This document shows positions 15,913 to 25,852 of a stretch of DNA of 25,975 nt, piece by piece. Where the stretch lies: positions 1 to 25,975 of the IMG/VR virus record IMGVR_UViG_3300047561_000907, one strand, 5' to 3'. This DNA comes from a virus. Its lineage: Duplodnaviria; Caudoviricetes. A program made the translations under genes and the position numbers. Every line of letters begins with the position of its first letter. The stretch's first letter is position 1. Below the pieces are notes generated by a model. The model ran no database searches. It was not told the origin of the DNA and was given only the letters and a program-made list of their open reading frames with translations.

Positions 15913-16061
15913 CCTACGTCCAATGGGGTGAAAGATACTACGCGGTGACTTCCAACGGAGATGTTTTTGATTCTACCGGGAAACTGACCATTATCCCGGA
16001 AGGGCTAAAGAAGGCAATCAAGGAGGTTGGCATTCATGAAGAAGCAAATAGTAACAGTTAG
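15909..16061 (+). CDS. hypothetical protein
   Basis: ATG 15909 overlaps the upstream stop; MTYVQWGERYYAVTSNGDVFDSTG. Confidence 0.5.
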   Translation: MTYVQWGERYYAVTSNGDVFDSTGKLTIIPEGLKKAIKEVGIHEEANSNS

Positions 16062-16680
16062 TTGCCAGTTGCCGGAATGGTTTGAGAAGCATTCGCTCCC
16101 GCGGATTAAGGAGGCATGCGAACGGTGGGACGCAAATCTTGTCGTCATTAAGCCGGAAAAGCCGATCGGGTTGCTAGCTAAGATGTCGCTAGTCGACGCG
16201 GTGCAGAATGCTGACAGAACCCTGTTTATCGACAGCGACGTTCTTATCTCCAGGGAATGCCAGAATCCTTTTGAGCTATTCCCGCGGGGTCACTTCTACG
16301 CTTGCGCAGACGCGCCTCACGGTGACCAGTTGCATTGGGGCCGAGCGAACGAGATGATCCTATCGCAGGCAATGCTCGGATCAATCAAGTGGACTCAAGG
16401 CTACTTCAACACCGGGGTCATGGTGTGCGACAAACAGCATGCAGGGGCCTGGGGCAATTTCGTATACGCACCGTTCGCGTTCCCTGAGCAGACCTTCACC
16501 AACTACCGGGCCAGAATGCTCGGGTACTCCATTCGTTTCCTAAGTTGGGAATGGAACGCAATGGAGATCAATACGCCGAAGGATAAGAAGCAGTCAGACG
16601 GATTCATGCCACACGCAGCCGGGATTTACGGAGACGACCGCGCGAAGTGGATTGAGGAAATGGATAAGGTACTACCATGA
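16036..16680 (+). CDS. GT-A glycosyltransferase, family 8-like
   Basis: AGGAGG RBS at 16021; LFIDSDVLI (DxD), YFNTGVMV, EQTFTNY, WEWNAM and HAAG motifs. Confidence 0.8.
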   Translation: MKKQIVTVSCQLPEWFEKHSLPRIKEACERWDANLVVIKPEKPIGLLAKMSLVDAVQNADRTLFIDSDVLISRECQNPFELFPRGHFYACADAPHGDQLHWGRANEMILSQAMLGSIKWTQGYFNTGVMVCDKQHAGAWGNFVYAPFAFPEQTFTNYRARMLGYSIRFLSWEWNAMEINTPKDKKQSDGFMPHAAGIYGDDRAKWIEEMDKVLP

Positions 16681-17741
16681 GAATATTAACTCTAAAAGAT
16701 CCCATGATGTTGGACGATCGACTCCACCATCCTCACGATTCGATTGTAGTTCCTGACGAGGTCCGCGGGATACCTGGCACACATGCCGACGCGTACACAA
16801 TTCCGTACCGGGTTGGTTGCGCCTCGGGCGGATTCGCGGCCCTGTACCGCGGTGGAGCGATCGGGGATCAGTTCATCGCAATGGGCATCGCCAGAGCAAT
16901 GCAACACTACGAGGGAGACGGAAGGGTTGAGGCTTACGTTCCGCAACGTCATTTGCCGTTGTGGGAAGGATTCGCCGGAGTCAGGGTCATGCCATTAGCT
17001 CCAACCATTGCAACGTGGAAGTCATACAAGGGCCACGTTTGCCTGGACGATATATTGTCAAAGACTGCGCACCTGGACGGAAACGTGTACGACTACGTCT
17101 ACAGATCCTGGGGCGTCGAGGTCGACGATCAGTTTAAGAAGCCTTACGCCAAGCTACTGGACAAGGACCAGAACGAACTTGTTGACGTTGGGTTTCATCC
17201 GGAAGGACCGTTCCTGCTCTACTCAATCAGTGGATCGAGCCTGTGGAAGAGCTACCCAACCTACGAGGCCGGACTGTTTATCAAGTCGTTCCTAAAAGAA
17301 AATAAGGATTGGCAAGTCGTAGCAGTGGGCCACGACGATCCTCCATTATCTATCTCGCACCAGAGGCTTATCAATCTGCAGGGAAGACTACGCAATGTCA
17401 GGACTCTTCTGCACCTAGCTGCGCGTTGCGACATGGCAGTTTGCCCGGAGTCGGCAATCATGCACATGACTGCAATATTCGACGCTCCTACCGTTGGACT
17501 GTACGGACCATACGGACCTGAGCACACGTCGAAATATTACAAGTACGTCAAGCCACTGTTCCCGCAAAACATTTGTCCTCACGCCCCATGCTCGGTGTAC
17601 GAGCAACCGAAGGACAAGTGCAAAGACGCGGTCAACGCAATACAGGGAGAACCCAAATGGTGCAACGTTCTAAAGTCAATCAAGCCAGAAGATATCCTGG
17701 CAAAGACAAAAGAAATCCAGGCAAACCTAAAACAGATCTGA
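16677..17741 (+). CDS. GT-B glycosyltransferase, family 9 (heptosyltransferase-like)
   Basis: GAIGDQF, ESAIMHMTAIFDAPTVGLYGP, C-terminal CPHAPC...C...C..I.PEDI. Confidence 0.8.
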   Translation: MRILTLKDPMMLDDRLHHPHDSIVVPDEVRGIPGTHADAYTIPYRVGCASGGFAALYRGGAIGDQFIAMGIARAMQHYEGDGRVEAYVPQRHLPLWEGFAGVRVMPLAPTIATWKSYKGHVCLDDILSKTAHLDGNVYDYVYRSWGVEVDDQFKKPYAKLLDKDQNELVDVGFHPEGPFLLYSISGSSLWKSYPTYEAGLFIKSFLKENKDWQVVAVGHDDPPLSISHQRLINLQGRLRNVRTLLHLAARCDMAVCPESAIMHMTAIFDAPTVGLYGPYGPEHTSKYYKYVKPLFPQNICPHAPCSVYEQPKDKCKDAVNAIQGEPKWCNVLKSIKPEDILAKTKEIQANLKQI

Positions 17742-17911
17742 TCAGAATCGTTTCTGAGAAGAAAGTTGTTTGCTACGAATTAAATCTTGATGTTGACGAT
17801 GATGTGTACGAATCAATTGTTGAGGCCGGGCGTATCCATATTGCGAACGATAAGGAAGCACTATTCCAGTACGCGCTGAAGACCGCGCTCAAGGAGGTTG
17901 CAAATGGATAA
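17657..17911 (+). CDS. hypothetical protein
   Basis: GGAG 7 nt before ATG 17657; overlaps the last 85 nt of the GT9 gene; globular-looking C-terminal half (YELNLDVDDD...ALFQYAL). Confidence 0.5.
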   Translation: MVQRSKVNQARRYPGKDKRNPGKPKTDLIRIVSEKKVVCYELNLDVDDDVYESIVEAGRIHIANDKEALFQYALKTALKEVANG

Positions 17912-18467
17912 CTTCAAACAAAAGATTCTTACAGCAGTGTGTGAGCCAGACGTGTTGACGCAAGGCCAGTGCAATATGATCCGCGACGACGCTCAGGTCG
18001 TAGGCATGAATAGGTCTCACGTCATGAAGAAGGATGGGACGACCAGGTCTTCCTACACCAGGACATGTTCATCGTGTTGGGTACCATTCGCGGAACATTA
18101 CAAGTGGCTATACGAAGTTGTCAGGTGTGTTTCCATGGACTTGAACGACCAGCACTACAGGCTGGACATTACCGGGATTCAACAGTTGCAGATCTTGCGC
18201 TACAGGCCCGGGCAGTTCTTCCTGCCACACTTTGACTGCTTCGATGGTAGCGACCGCAAGCTAACGATGGTGATCAACCTATCAGATCCATCAGAGTTCC
18301 TTGGCGGAGGGCTCAGGGTTGAGTGCGACTTGCATAATGCGAAGGATGTAAAGAAGCGGGGATCGGCAACAATGTTCCCCACCTACATAAAGCACCAGGC
18401 GCGTCCTGTGTTTTGGGGCTCCAGATGGGTCCTAGTCGCCTGGCTAACCGGGGGTCAGTGGAGATGA
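17904..18467 (+). CDS. 2OG-Fe(II) oxygenase (prolyl-4-hydroxylase/PKHD-like)
   Basis: AAGGAGG RBS; QILRY..GQFF.PH.D, RKLTMVI.LS...F.GG.L, MFP....H...PV..G.R..LV.W. Confidence 0.85.
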   Translation: MDNFKQKILTAVCEPDVLTQGQCNMIRDDAQVVGMNRSHVMKKDGTTRSSYTRTCSSCWVPFAEHYKWLYEVVRCVSMDLNDQHYRLDITGIQQLQILRYRPGQFFLPHFDCFDGSDRKLTMVINLSDPSEFLGGGLRVECDLHNAKDVKKRGSATMFPTYIKHQARPVFWGSRWVLVAWLTGGQWR

Positions 18468-22362: not shown

Positions 22363-22644
22363 ATGCACGAAAGTAAATTAATCGAAAAGATCAAGCGGGA
22401 CCACCGGGTAGATTCAATCAGTGACGAGCGCGACTATCGCGGTTCAGATCTGAACGACCCCCAGGTCAAGGAGTACATCAAGCGCACTGGCGACAACGGT
22501 GACGGATTCTGGATCTACCTCAAGCCAGGCTGGGTAGATAATGCCGGGACCGGGGCCCACCAGGTCCATGAGTCCAGCGTCGAGGAGGCTTACAGTTTCC
22601 TTAGAGGCGTCGACAAGTGCAAGTGCAGTGAATGCAAATCATAA
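22363..22644 (+). CDS. hypothetical early protein with C-terminal CxCxxC
   Basis: ATG follows leader repeat 1; DG.WIYLKPGW...H..HE...C.C..C. Confidence 0.7.
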   Translation: MHESKLIEKIKRDHRVDSISDERDYRGSDLNDPQVKEYIKRTGDNGDGFWIYLKPGWVDNAGTGAHQVHESSVEEAYSFLRGVDKCKCSECKS

Positions 22645-22663
22645 CCAAGAAAGGCCCACAAAC

Positions 22664-22855
22664 ATGATCACCACTACCCATAACATCACGAAGAACAACA
22701 TCCAAAAAGAGACGTTCTACAACATCTGCAAGATTGCGTACTTCACCAGGTTTGCAATGCCATGCGAGGCAATTAAAGACGGATCATTTTCCCTGCGCGT
22801 CCTCAAGGACGAGTGCGGGAACATAGTCGCATTGAAGTTCAGAAAACAACCCTAA
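22664..22855 (+). CDS. hypothetical early protein
   Basis: ATG follows leader repeat 2; 63 aa. Confidence 0.6.
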   Translation: MITTTHNITKNNIQKETFYNICKIAYFTRFAMPCEAIKDGSFSLRVLKDECGNIVALKFRKQP

Positions 22856-22874
22856 CCAAGAAAGACCAACCAAC

Positions 22875-23051
22875 ATGATAAACACAACTAAAAGCAAGAT
22901 ACTGGAAAAGCTATTCGTGAACTACGTCAACTCGAATTCGGAAAGGATTCGGGCGCTTGCGAAGTTCTGCAACTTGTCACAACAGGAAAAGTCTGACCTT
23001 GTAGTGGCATTCAAGAAACATCAGTTAACCATTAAAGGAGAATCCAAATGA
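22875..23051 (+). CDS. hypothetical early protein (58 aa)
   Basis: ATG follows leader repeat 3; MINTTKSKILEKLFVNYV...; ATGA overlap with the next gene; not in the track. Confidence 0.6.
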   Translation: MINTTKSKILEKLFVNYVNSNSERIRALAKFCNLSQQEKSDLVVAFKKHQLTIKGESK

Positions 23052-23506
23052 TCAACAAAGACACACTCAGCATAATTCGTAACCAGATTGACCCGCTCCT
23101 GGCAGAGCTCAACAGGGTCAACAAGCAGTTCAACCTAAAGCTGGGCAACTGCACCTACAACGCGGACACTGCCACCTTCAAGATGGAGGTCCGGTCGGTT
23201 GAGGAAGGTGGAGAGATTGTGACCAAGGAACTGGCAGACTTGCGGTTCAGTGTGCGCAATAACTTCGACGGACTGAAGGAGGAACACTTGACCAAGGAGT
23301 TTAAGACCTCCAAGGGCACTGCTCGCCTGTGCGGGTACAGGGGCCGGGCGACCAAGTCGTTTGTCTTTGAGGTGATCGACGGAGTTAACAAGGGCAAGCA
23401 GTTCGTTACGGACCGCAAAGGCATCCAGTTCTACCTTGGAATCGAGGCGCCCTCAATTCAGAACGCAACTGCATGGGAAAAACTGGACGATATATGCAAG
23501 AGCTAA
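23048..23506 (+). CDS. hypothetical protein
   Basis: AAAGGAG RBS; 152 aa globular-looking sequence. Confidence 0.7.
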   Translation: MINKDTLSIIRNQIDPLLAELNRVNKQFNLKLGNCTYNADTATFKMEVRSVEEGGEIVTKELADLRFSVRNNFDGLKEEHLTKEFKTSKGTARLCGYRGRATKSFVFEVIDGVNKGKQFVTDRKGIQFYLGIEAPSIQNATAWEKLDDICKS

Positions 23507-23570
23507 TCCTACTCAGTCCTTGCTTAATATTGTGCACCGTGTTTATGTGGAAAATGTACTGGAGGAAACC

Positions 23571-23843
23571 ATGAAGTATTACGCTGAAGAAGAAGGTGAA
23601 CTGACGTTCGAGCAGATGGTTCCTGGCAAGTATTATCGGTCCGGGAACGACTACGGTATCTGCGAGATCAATCAATCCGCCAGCAACAGGCCAAAGATCC
23701 TGACCTACCTCAATAGGTGCGGGAGTTGCATAGGTGGCAACGTCCTGCTGTTCGAGGTCGACATGACGGACCGGATGCTCGCCAAGCTCAAGGAGCGCCG
23801 GGACAGGACGATCGGGTTCATCGACGAGATGAGGACCTGGTGA
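23571..23843 (+). CDS. hypothetical protein
   Basis: GGAGG RBS at 23561; ATG 23571 preferred over the track start at 23436. Confidence 0.65.
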   Translation: MKYYAEEEGELTFEQMVPGKYYRSGNDYGICEINQSASNRPKILTYLNRCGSCIGGNVLLFEVDMTDRMLAKLKERRDRTIGFIDEMRTW

Positions 23844-24505
23844 GTTTACGCGCAGATAGTTCAATAGAAGAACTTCCCCTATTCCAAGGGGAGAACGGAG
23901 GTGCGATCCCTACCTCTGCGCTCCAACTTAAATTCCGGTCCATAGGGTCAAAGACGATGAATGAAGTAGTCGTAGCCAACCACTACGCGCACCGGGCCGT
24001 GCCTTGCAACTGGTCGTTCGGATGCTTCCATGGCAGTGAACTGCTGGGAGTAATCTCGTTCGGCAAACCCGCGTCGCCTCATCTATGCAGGGGCATATGC
24101 GGGGCAGAGAATGCGTCCAGGGTCTACGAGTTGAACAGATTGTGGCTCGACGATCGGTGCCCTAAGAACTCTGAGAGCAGATTCATATCCTGGAGCATTC
24201 GAGAGTTAACAAAGTTGCGACCGTACTTGATCCTGGTTAGCTATGCAGATACCGGGGCCGGGCATAACGGAATGATCTACGCAGCCACCAACTGGATTTA
24301 CACCGGACTATCTGACAAGAGATCTTCCGGTGACAAGGTTGTCGGAAACAAGCACAGCAGGCACTCTAGGACAATGGAAGAGGCAGTGATTGTGCCCAGG
24401 ACTAGGAAGCATAGGTTTGTTTACTTTTGTAACCAAGAGGATAGAACTTTACTGAAATGGAATGTAGAGAACTGGAAAGAGTGGAAAGAATGGAGGGAAG
24501 AATGA
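23840..24505 (+). CDS. mom: Mom-family adenine modification (carbamoylmethylation) enzyme, GNAT fold
   Basis: NHY.HR, FG......L.GVI.FG.P, ELNRLW......NSES.FIS, LVSYAD...H.G.IY.A.NW.YTG and K.RFVYF motifs. GTG 23840 is coupled to the upstream TGA. Confidence 0.8.
   Translation: MSLRADSSIEELPLFQGENGGAIPTSALQLKFRSIGSKTMNEVVVANHYAHRAVPCNWSFGCFHGSELLGVISFGKPASPHLCRGICGAENASRVYELNRLWLDDRCPKNSESRFISWSIRELTKLRPYLILVSYADTGAGHNGMIYAATNWIYTGLSDKRSSGDKVVGNKHSRHSRTMEEAVIVPRTRKHRFVYFCNQEDRTLLKWNVENWKEWKEWREE
23850..23925 (+). tRNA. non-canonical tRNA-Gly(TCC)-like element embedded in the mom 5' coding region
   Basis: Acceptor GCGCAGA/TCTGCGC + T discriminator + CCA; T8A9; D-stem GTTC/GAAC; anticodon stem TCCCC/GGGGA with TTCCAA in the loop; T-arm GGAGG-TGCGATC-CCT(A)CC; 76 nt. 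Confidence 0.75.
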
Positions 24506-24705
24506 GTCAATCAATTGAATGTCCTAACTGTAAATGTGAGGTCCCGGTGGCGTTATTCGCGTCCAGGATCGGCAAGGTTACGTCGGAGGCTAAGGCTAAG
24601 GCATCGATCGCTAATGGTAAGAAGGGTGGGGCGCCTAAAGGGAACAGGAATTGGGCCGGGAAAGAGCTCCCGGTGGCATCGTTTCGACCCATCAAACTGG
24701 ACTGA
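24502..24705 (+). CDS. small putative DNA-binding protein (CxxC + TSEAKA.AS..NGKKGG.P motif)
   Basis: GGAGG RBS, ATGA overlap with mom; basic KGG.PKGNRN motif. Confidence 0.65.
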   Translation: MSQSIECPNCKCEVPVALFASRIGKVTSEAKAKASIANGKKGGAPKGNRNWAGKELPVASFRPIKLD

Positions 24706-24945
24706 AACATAGCCCGAAAGGGCTAGAAACAGCTATTTCGCCCTACTCTGTTAAACCCGGGTTCTACACTGTTTCACCATTTCGTTCCCCTTATATATAT
24801 ATAATGGTGAAACAGACCCTGTTAGAGCGGGGAACTAAAGTTCCCCCGCTTCGCTTCGCTAGCGGTACCGCTCCAACCGCGGGGTCTTTTCAGTTTACCA
24901 TATGCCTTTTTGATTCTTACCAGAAAGAATAGGTGAAACATGAAA
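24703..24945. other. palindrome-rich intergenic region, putative replication origin/regulatory region
   Basis: 13-bp inverted repeat 24769-24781/24803-24815 around (TA)n; hairpins at 24710-24725 and 24826-24850; palindrome 24861-24872; several (T)GAAAC motifs. Confidence 0.5.
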
Positions 24946-25083
24946 GACTTGCGCGTCGGCCTGGATGCAATACGTTGACGCAAGCCAGTTCTTATGGGGT
25001 GGGTTGGGGAATTGGTTGCGACCCGGGAGGGGTGAAAGCGGTTCCCGGGCGCGGGGTTTTCTATCCTACCGGGAGGGTTGCAT

Positions 25084-25281
25084 GTGTCAGACGAAGCTAA
25101 AATTAAATCACTCATCGCTGAGAACATTAAGCTCAAGTCAGCATGTTCTGCGTTTTGGAAGTTGCTTACCAATTGCAACAGGAAGTGTAGTGACGAAGTT
25201 GGGGAGACATTAGTAAATGAATGTATCTGGAAACTCCAGCGACTCGCCAACTACTACGAGTCCAAAGGAACAAGCCTCTAG
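25084..25281 (+). CDS. hypothetical protein
   Basis: GGAGG RBS 7 nt before GTG 25084; helical product. Confidence 0.55.
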   Translation: MSDEAKIKSLIAENIKLKSACSAFWKLLTNCNRKCSDEVGETLVNECIWKLQRLANYYESKGTSL

Positions 25282-25852
25282 TCCTAACCAGGAATCTAAC
25301 CAGGTTCCGAAGCAGAAGAAGAGGCGCATGAAGTTGCGCTTCCCGGAAAAGAAGATTGAGAAGGTAGACGAGAAGCGCCTGGACAAAGAGCGCAGACTCA
25401 TGAATGAAGTTCCGAGTTACATCCCGGACGTTGTCATTGGCGTCAAGGGATTCCCAAAGATTACCGACGAGCACTTAACAATTGTCGAGACAGCACTCAG
25501 CAAAGGGTTTCCGTATGCAATGATTGCGGACCTATTAGGAGTTGCAAAGTCCACATTATCAAGATATCTCGCCGCCAACCCTCACATCGTGGAACGCTTA
25601 AAAAAAGCAGAGGCGCTCCACATCACGCGCGCGCTGGAAGTCATTGATAGGGCGGCAGAAAAGGGCACTTGGCAAGCGGCTGCCTGGCGCATCGAACGCA
25701 GGGCCCAGGAGCATTTTGGACAGCAGTCAAGAGTCCAGGTTGGTGGAGCAGTGGCGAACGTACACTTTACGGCCGCGGACGCGGCGCTCCTGGTCAACGC
25801 AAACAAAATTAAGTATGCCGGGAAGGCGGAGTCGAAGCCTGTTTCCGAGTGA
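25217..25852 (+). CDS. putative terminase small subunit (HTH)
   Basis: ALSKGFPYAMIADLLGVAKSTLSRYL helix-turn-helix followed by KAEA...WQAAAWRIERR...FG, the usual TerS-like pattern; start uncertain. Confidence 0.7.
   Translation: MNVSGNSSDSPTTTSPKEQASSPNQESNQVPKQKKRRMKLRFPEKKIEKVDEKRLDKERRLMNEVPSYIPDVVIGVKGFPKITDEHLTIVETALSKGFPYAMIADLLGVAKSTLSRYLAANPHIVERLKKAEALHITRALEVIDRAAEKGTWQAAAWRIERRAQEHFGQQSRVQVGGAVANVHFTAADAALLVNANKIKYAGKAESKPVSE

Follow-up and report, generated by a model that had tools for sequence, protein, structure and literature searches.

An in-frame tRNA-Gly-like element in phage mom genes, and its likely role as a glycine donor

The operator of E. coli thrS is untranslated, lies near the translation start and mimics anticodon arms only. 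In Alphaproteobacteria, selC (tRNA-Sec) is nested in selB, and an either/or model has been proposed for this pair, without a test (Mukai 2021, PMC8124441). The ssrA islands of Dehalococcoides carry a 76-bp tRNA-Gly-like ‘pseudo-tRNA’ in the first 150 bp of a mom homologue (McMurdie et al. 2011, PMC3146451). The embedded element and the either/or model are both already known, the one from Dehalococcoides since 2011 and the other from selB/selC since 2021.

Mom of phage Mu moves glycine from Gly-tRNA-Gly onto the N6 of adenine (PMC13219725). According to the same paper it accepts all three tRNA-Gly of E. coli, and the authors suggest that it reads the charged 3’ end. Staphylococci have non-proteogenic tRNA-Gly (NP1-3), which feed FmhB, FemA and FemB (passages of PMC7826273).

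A search of open-access literature gave no paper that ties the nested element to Mom’s glycine donor, or that describes its 3’ class. The terms ‘encoded tRNA’, ‘adjacent’ and ‘upstream’ are missing from the main text of PMC13219725, and PMC10690425 does not mention Mom.

The window analysed here is the whole stretch of 25,975 nucleotides of IMG/VR record IMGVR_UViG_3300047561_000907, a phage record that is ~67% complete. Its mom locus is laid out in Table 1. The original prediction for this DNA was that the start of mom also encodes a tRNA cloverleaf. That cloverleaf is real: its G1 at 23850 lies 10 nt after the GTG at 23840, and all positions that had been given for the locus are correct.

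Table 1 Features of the mom locus and its surroundings in the window.
Feature	Position	Strand	Basis or remark
Upstream ORF, 90 codons	23571..23843	+	Sequence; without Pfam or PHROG match; no function assigned
Shine-Dalgarno-like GAGGA 5’ of GTG	23831..23835	+	Read from sequence; putative function
mom-family gene, 221 codons, GTG start, TGA end	23840..24505	+	Pfam PF25680, phrog_1384
tRNA-Gly-like cloverleaf, 76 nt, in frame in mom codons 4-29	23850..23925	+	
Acceptor stem	23850-56/23915-21	+	
D stem	23859-62/23870-73	+	
Anticodon stem	23875-80/23887-92	+	
Gly-type anticodon TCC, loop one base longer than usual	23883..23885	+	
T stem	23897-901/23909-14	+	
Bulged A, T-stem 3’ strand, between pairs 50-64 and 51-63, EF-Tu contact region	23912..23912	+	
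Discriminator U73 and encoded CCA	23922..23925	+	CCA at 23923-23925
Mom (GNAT) core, residues 30-210, directly 3’ of CCA	23927..24469	+	Pfam profile match
Internal in-frame ATG, residue 40, rejected as start	23957..23959	+	Inside helix 37-47, past strand 31-34
67-codon ORF downstream of mom	24502..24705	+	ATG overlaps mom stop
Terminase small subunit-like gene, late-gene context	25217..25852	+	phrog_4102, E 8.4e-18

The TGA of the upstream ORF (23841-23843) overlaps the GTG of mom as GTGA, and the stop of mom overlaps the next ATG as ATGA (24502-24505). The upstream ORF is found in relatives with mom and in relatives without it. The ORF at 24502-24705 has one CxxC and a Gly/Lys-rich stretch, and it is retained at this slot throughout. 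Since neither neighbouring ORF (23571-23843 and 24502-24705) has a Pfam or PHROG match, no Com was found there; no com gene had been recognised upstream by eye either. Where the element sits at the C-terminal end of mom (for example L311, L332 and L334), the two are often directly 5’ of a terminase small subunit-like gene, and the window has such a gene at 25217-25852; this suggests that mom is expressed late, when DNA is packaged. Elsewhere in the window, at 16027-18467, genes for two glycosyltransferases (GT8 and GT9) adjoin, together with a gene for a 2OG-Fe(II) oxygenase; these may form a second modification system.

The PF25680 profile matches the window protein with E 8.5e-40 and 137 bits, against a curated cut-off of 27.1. 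The match begins at residue 30, which is the first full codon 3’ of CCA; Mom-like sequence does start right past the CCA and 5’ of the ATG at 23957, as had been noticed. Mu Mom (8bv8) is the sole PDB sequence match, and also the best fold match of the predicted model (E 1.4e-13, TM 0.70). Six of seven active-site equivalents are kept: Mu H58, Y59, R111, S124, D149 and Y159 are H48, Y49, R100, S113, D137 and Y147 here. R151, which is essential in Mu Mom, aligns with G139. W48 is not kept and the insertion is shorter. Given the missing R151 equivalent and the shorter insertion, the chemistry of the window Mom is only presumed.

The cloverleaf is the minimum-energy fold of its stretch (-28.4 kcal/mol, z -3.46), and none of 200 shuffles was as good. 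It has G1-C72, C2-G71 and G3-C70, the anticodon TCC, U73 and a CCA that is encoded. Four traits set it apart from ordinary tRNAs: the anticodon loop is longer, one A bulges from the T stem, the T loop reads UGC, and the D loop has no GG. The canonical counterparts (7-nt anticodon loop, unbroken 5-bp T stem, UUC T loop, G18G19) are all absent. Its Rfam tRNA score of 28.7 bits is slightly below the gathering score of 29, and ARAGORN called no tRNA over the whole window. The same program detected 15 of the 56 family elements tried.

Related elements were searched for with a pattern of a bulged T arm plus CCA. This matched ~1,300 stretches in viral contigs and ~2,600 in metagenomes, both being estimates from partial scans. 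The free positions of the first DNA pattern were third codon bases, so it favours one frame; the scan was repeated with a looser pattern, and also from the protein side. A held-out metagenome set gave 120 matches, of which 94 were kept after 21 had failed the stem test and 5 duplicates had been removed. Elements at the N-terminal end of mom were clustered at 80% identity (n=45). Clusters are kin, and counts of them therefore overstate independence.

Selection acts at the level of the RNA. Across 29 N-terminal relatives, pairing holds in 98.3% of cells, and 15 of the 22 pairs have changed on either side; slid controls give 43-52%. A second gap-free alignment gives 95.7%, with 17 of 22 pairs changing both sides; over both gap-free alignments, slid controls pair at 36-52%. 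Compensatory changes are present in all four stems. Read in the bulged register the T stem pairs in 99.4%, and in the unbulged register in 76.6%. The 31 elements found from the Mom side, where the bulge was not preselected, all have A as the bulged base. It stays while flanking pairs and encoded residues change (GG to AG or PG).

Bacterial GlyRS recognises G1-C72, C2-G71, C35, C36 and U73 (passages of PMC10464925). Each of these is present in 32-35 of 35 clusters, and all are in the window. C2 and C35 are third codon positions, kept in 34 and 35 of 35 clusters and fixed by neither DNA pattern; unlike them, third positions 3’ of the CCA vary freely. U73, which the second DNA pattern fixes and the first leaves free, occurs in 42 of 45 clusters of the N-terminal class, in 49 of 49 of the C-terminal class and in 14 of 14 separate ones.

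The place of the element was counted in 81 unique pattern-picked viral elements with at least 900 nt of flank on each side. 23 are in the first codons of mom, 37 in the last codons, and 8 overlap the stop; 6 are wholly outside mom, 1 lies far off, and the last 6 are Mom-less. The element is thus partly or wholly outside the mom frame in 14 of 81. Held-out elements with 600-nt flanks (n=34) divide into 13 in the first codons, 7 in the last, 8 over the stop, 3 outside and 3 Mom-less. A Mom-like gene adjoins 75 of the 81 viral and 31 of the 34 held-out elements, all of them pattern-picked with long flanks. In the C-terminal class the same T-arm frame is used by 43 of 49 clusters, where free choice predicts 29.5; this bias may come from shared ancestry, pattern bias or a peptide role.

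In 5 whole Chloroflexi assemblies, 6 of 6 forward matches adjoin a Mom match; control matches gave 1. Through the terminase-like gene, 39 relatives of the window were gathered; 25 of them, some being near-duplicates, carry both flanking genes. Mom and the element are both present in 12 of these 25 and both absent in 13, and in none is there one alone. Nesting, conserved structure, GlyRS identity bases and joint gain and loss with mom are all established at the level of sequence comparison. From the protein side, the element is carried by 13 of the best 80 viral Mom loci and by 22 of 56 cellular ones. Within 1.5 kb of the remaining loci (67 of the best 80 viral and 34 of 56 cellular) there is none, and the majority of Mom genes therefore lack it.

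The family holds some odd members. Cultured phages, searched with two element sequences, gave one full-length match, Salinibacter phage B2_17 (OR896349.1, L410:2502-2577). Its element is just 3’ of mom, is annotated as tRNA-Gly, and ends in CTA instead of CCA. The record looks frameshifted, since the Mom C-terminal motif is off the annotated CDS frame. Tandem copies are found in L293 (573-647 and 653-727) and in L119, and in L366 and L322 the C-terminal peptide shows a repeated element. On the - strand of L452:6001-8520 (L273), an 840-codon frame runs from the upstream gene through the element into Mom, either a fusion or a lost stop. The element L285:1966-2040, which is of Gly type and ends a Mom gene on its 3’ side, has an unbulged T stem. 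L213:2530-2603 (- strand) is an ordinary bulge-less tRNA-Gly(TCC), ~500 nt from a mom that lacks a nested element. A divergent Mom-like subfamily (HS-R-P ... ELRR-A motif) is fused to the element in L035/L291, L048, L100, L102, L108, L296, L306 and L339, and matches the core profile only in its middle. Related elements in Chloroflexi assemblies adjoin serine-recombinase-like and ParB-like genes (labels read from motifs). L297, L305, L320, L337, L348, L350, L365 and L104 have no Mom-like match nearby, and several Mom-less elements are directly 5’ of terminase-like genes (labels read from the sequences).

Element and core do not always share a history. The pairs L157/L164, L158/L163 and L163/L065 are alike in 74-75 of 76 nt of the element, with Mom cores only 37-51% identical. 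Conversely, L157 and the window share 84% of the core and only 65 of 76 nt of the element. Mom cores seem to have been swapped behind the CCA. In a FastTree tree of Mom cores the position classes are clustered, yet spread over several groups; with many long branches and 2 rows mislabelled ‘none’, this tree gives no order of events.

Because every arrangement shares a chargeable, poorly decoding tRNA-Gly that is co-transcribed with mom, the element is probably, if far from surely, a non-decoding tRNA-Gly that serves as Mom’s private glycine donor. Since Mom uses Gly-tRNA-Gly, the GlyRS bases, the encoded CCA, the T-stem bulge and the free wobble base all fit such a donor. Across the family the wobble base varies freely, and 23 of the 49 C-terminal clusters have ACC as anticodon. 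A34 is not known from bacterial tRNA-Gly. A tight EF-Tu pair, G51-C63 in the T-stem energies of PMC3239215, is found in 2 of 94 elements, and the window has A51-U63, a weak one. Among known tRNAs, selC* tRNA-Cys likewise has an unpaired A in its T stem (passages of PMC7609411). The role of the bulge as a barrier to EF-Tu is extrapolated, PMC3239215 having no passage on bulges. A general loss of G18G19 was considered as a further family trait and dropped, with GG found in the D-loop region of 47 of 94 elements.

Some data sit less well with a donor. One 69-nt group of elements is without a D stem; this counts against the donor reading, given that a D-armless tRNA-Gly is poorly charged by one GlyRS (passages of PMC10464925). 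The 6 of 81 elements without Mom nearby also speak against it. A private donor is moreover dispensable, since Mu Mom takes host tRNA-Gly and most Mom loci lack the element. Overall, the element is real, conserved and dual-coded, and a donor role is likely.

The alternative that survives best, unlikely as a main role, is autoregulation. Mom or GlyRS would bind the folded element in the intact mRNA, or steer its cutting, and so repress mom; the original prediction had offered this with thrS as its example. An operator needs a fixed place at the ribosome-binding site, and in the window it has one. The acceptor 5’ strand follows closely on the start, the predicted fold has the GTG in a paired state (unpaired probability 0.08), and the majority of starts are 4-19 nt 5’ of G1. 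Mu mom is silenced to avoid toxicity (PMC3378877), the neighbours have no Com match, and the same model has been proposed for selC nested in selB (PMC8124441). In the family, however, the element is 5’ in only 23 of 81 loci. The last codons of mom are commoner (37 of 81), and another 14 of 81 are partly or wholly outside the frame; from neither place can the element gate initiation. The held-out set agrees (29 and 13 of 94). A start-site operator is therefore not the general role. Occlusion of the start also varies widely among relatives, with unpaired probabilities of 0.12-0.64 and a mean of 0.44. A start-hiding flank helix, seen in the window’s fold, was rejected as a conserved feature, relatives not showing it consistently. 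U73, the CCA and the acceptor identity pairs are retained, which an operator would presumably not need, and the charged 3’ end, the suggested target of Mom (passages of PMC13219725), is absent inside an mRNA. For the 5’ class, whose start is predicted to be occluded, feedback by Mom or GlyRS keeps a small probability. It cannot explain the 3’ class, the free-standing class or the conserved CCA end.

It is improbable that the donor RNA comes from a separate short transcript or from few messages, at no cost in enzyme and with no meaningful trade-off. Free-standing versions do exist, such as the one 3’ of the mom stop in phage B2_17, and a few precursor cuts should suffice for a stable tRNA. Yet a scan for sigma-70-like promoters gave none on the + strand in 22600-25300 (its 2 sites are both on the - strand, at chance level), and no + strand terminator was found between the CCA and 24870. 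The overlaps of stop and start at either end of mom argue for a single polycistronic message.

That the released RNA serves translation, or acts as a decoy for host tRNA-cutting defences, with mom as an incidental neighbour, is more improbable still. TCC is a normal Gly anticodon, and the Mom-less 6 of 81 elements would suit this. The enlarged anticodon loop, the bulged T stem, the ACC anticodons and the D-armless forms do not, and neither do the strict joint gain and loss with mom and the 5 whole genomes that match only beside mom.

There is very little to commend an element that is never released and persists as the relic of a captured tRNA, be it for a useful peptide, for a fold that stabilises the mRNA or as a handle by which recombination swaps Mom cores. 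Near-identical elements do precede divergent cores (74 of 76 nt with 51% protein identity, and 74 of 76 with 37%), residues 24-30 of the window Mom align with the N-terminal region of Mu Mom, and one frame is shared at both gene ends. Against this stand the compensatory changes in all four stems, identity bases that are fixed at third codon positions, low model confidence over residues 1-20 (pLDDT 43-53, where residues 31-50 have 95-98), and non-coding copies of the same form. An attP for integration at host tRNAs was also considered, and rejected by inference from the full cloverleaf, the bulge and the high diversity.

The GTG at 23840 is very likely the start of mom, and that the cloverleaf is dual-coded, being translated through from this GTG, is well supported. 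The dual coding claimed in the original prediction draws on several independent lines: start overlaps, in-frame upstream starts and the fold model. In 8 of 13 mom-less relatives the downstream gene starts at the same GTGA overlap. Position 23840 is therefore a working start slot, at which the mom cassette was inserted. The upstream ORF stops at -10..+7 of the mom start in 22 of 38 clusters, compared to 61 of 975 control positions (6%). An in-frame ATG at most 33 nt 5’ of G1 is present in 33 of 45 N-terminal clusters, with 9 and 6 in the other frames; in the held-out metagenome set this is 20 of 32, with 7 and 10. Within the region scored, 43 of the 45 clusters have an in-frame start before or inside the element. 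In elements of 74 or 77 nt the start changes phase, and the Mom frame is preserved.

A start at the ATG at 23957, or at another codon past the CCA, with the tRNA as an ordinary upstream gene, is scarcely credible: it is the earliest in-frame ATG of mom and some relatives have a GTG or TTG shortly 3’ of the CCA, but this ATG is missing in 4 of 17 close relatives aligned, starting there would delete the first strand of the Mom fold (31-34, predicted model), the next gene takes the GTGA slot where mom is absent, and 72 of 73 N-terminal loci, a class defined partly by an open frame, have no stop in the Mom frame over the length of the element, as against 14 and 7 for the other frames.

Coupling is also seen at the other end of the gene. 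The next ORF starts at -11..+9 of the mom stop in 35 of 48 C-terminal clusters, compared to 217 of 1776 controls (12%). Genes here swap between start/stop overlaps, and a tRNA that travels with mom and leaves the coupling unbroken must for that reason sit in frame. The nesting is probably kept since tRNA and enzyme travel as one start-to-stop cassette that preserves coupling.

Release of a tRNA takes a 5’ cut by RNase P and a 3’ nuclease. Charging requires a free CCA, and hence the message must be cut by both. The predicted 5’ cut site is 6 nt past the upstream stop, so that the upstream gene is spared and the mom start is removed; the predicted 3’ cut leaves the mom core without a usable start. 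The 8 nt past the CCA have an A/U content of 0.65, versus 0.52-0.53 in the core. Less in favour of release, no more than 23 of 34 clusters have an acceptor stem that is predicted to form while the message is uncut. Eight runs, 6 of RNA and 2 of DNA, consist of contigs of relatives, in which no processed ends are visible.

The cloverleaf is likely cut out of the message, after translation, by tRNA-processing nucleases of the host, and a possible course of events is as follows. Ribosomes that end the upstream ORF would start anew at the GTG that overlaps its stop, and by translating the cloverleaf they would hold it open. Once the message is idle, the cloverleaf would fold, RNase P would cut at 23850, and a 3’ nuclease would free the CCA. 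This excision would leave the upstream cistron intact, behead mom and uncouple the next gene. The released RNA would then be charged by host GlyRS and, because its bulged T stem would keep it off EF-Tu, be delivered to Mom for glycylation of N6-adenine. The trade-off would be sequential and passive, enzyme first and donor later, with excision as a decay step.

Such a passive sequential trade-off between enzyme and donor is plausible. It agrees with the original prediction in that excision, by its geometry, would split the start codon from the enzyme core. The strict form, in which each transcript gives either enzyme or RNA, does not hold up, because one transcript can be translated and then cut. 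What had been observed is confirmed, and its interpretation is partly supported. A more speculative extension, somewhat doubtful, is that the Mom cassette is a self-limiting unit of enzyme plus cofactor. The mRNA would make enzyme and then be consumed for an EF-Tu-proof carrier. The outcome of the race between ribosome and RNase P would fix how much enzyme is made relative to donor, and would limit a toxic enzyme where Mu uses its Com switch. Mom, once bound, might bias this race and so complete a feedback loop.

Should release and charging of the RNA prove true, a large number of phages and integrative elements bring their own aminoacyl donor for DNA modification. This donor would be hidden in the gene of its enzyme and mostly missed by tRNA finders, ARAGORN being the example above. 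Dedicated non-decoding tRNA-Gly systems would then number two, the other being that of staphylococci, and nested tRNA genes, for which either/or expression is so far a proposal, would gain a model that is easy to work with. If a single T-stem bulge acts as an antideterminant for EF-Tu, it would help in making orthogonal aminoacyl donors. On the practical side, Mom homologues cloned as recoded genes, or with trimmed ends, may lose their donor.

Like the operator of thrS, the element is a tRNA-like structure near a translation start. Unlike it, the element is a full cloverleaf with CCA, in frame, and often at the 3’ end.

Mu Mom (PF25680, 8bv8) has the same fold and the six equivalent residues listed above. 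It differs in using host tRNA-Gly (passages of PMC13219725), and the window Mom differs from it in R151, W48, the shorter insertion and the absence of a Com match nearby.

The staphylococcal NP1-3 are like the element in Gly identity, a weak A51-U63, a UGC T loop, an extra anticodon-stem pair, and a tRNA-dependent aminoacyl transferase as partner. They differ in being free-standing chromosomal genes with a peptidoglycan acceptor, and the passages of PMC7826273 describe no T-stem bulge for them. NP1-3 have been tested biochemically, where the mom element is known from its sequence.

The locus resembles selB/selC in that a complete tRNA lies, in frame, within the coding sequence of its own user protein, and in a stop/start overlap with the next ORF. 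There too the overlap is conserved and not essential, and the same either/or hypothesis was raised (PMC8124441). selC is C-terminal only, decodes, and serves an elongation factor. Here the tRNA is likely non-decoding, the protein modifies DNA, the carriers are mobile elements, and in this window the nesting is N-terminal.

With the Dehalococcoides pseudo-tRNA the element shares its length, its site in mom and a Gly-type anticodon (‘DCC’ there). The passages of PMC3146451 on it give no function, and treat Mom as methylase-like. The present work extends that report to an element that is widespread in phages, sits at either end of mom or outside it, and carries a donor-type signature.
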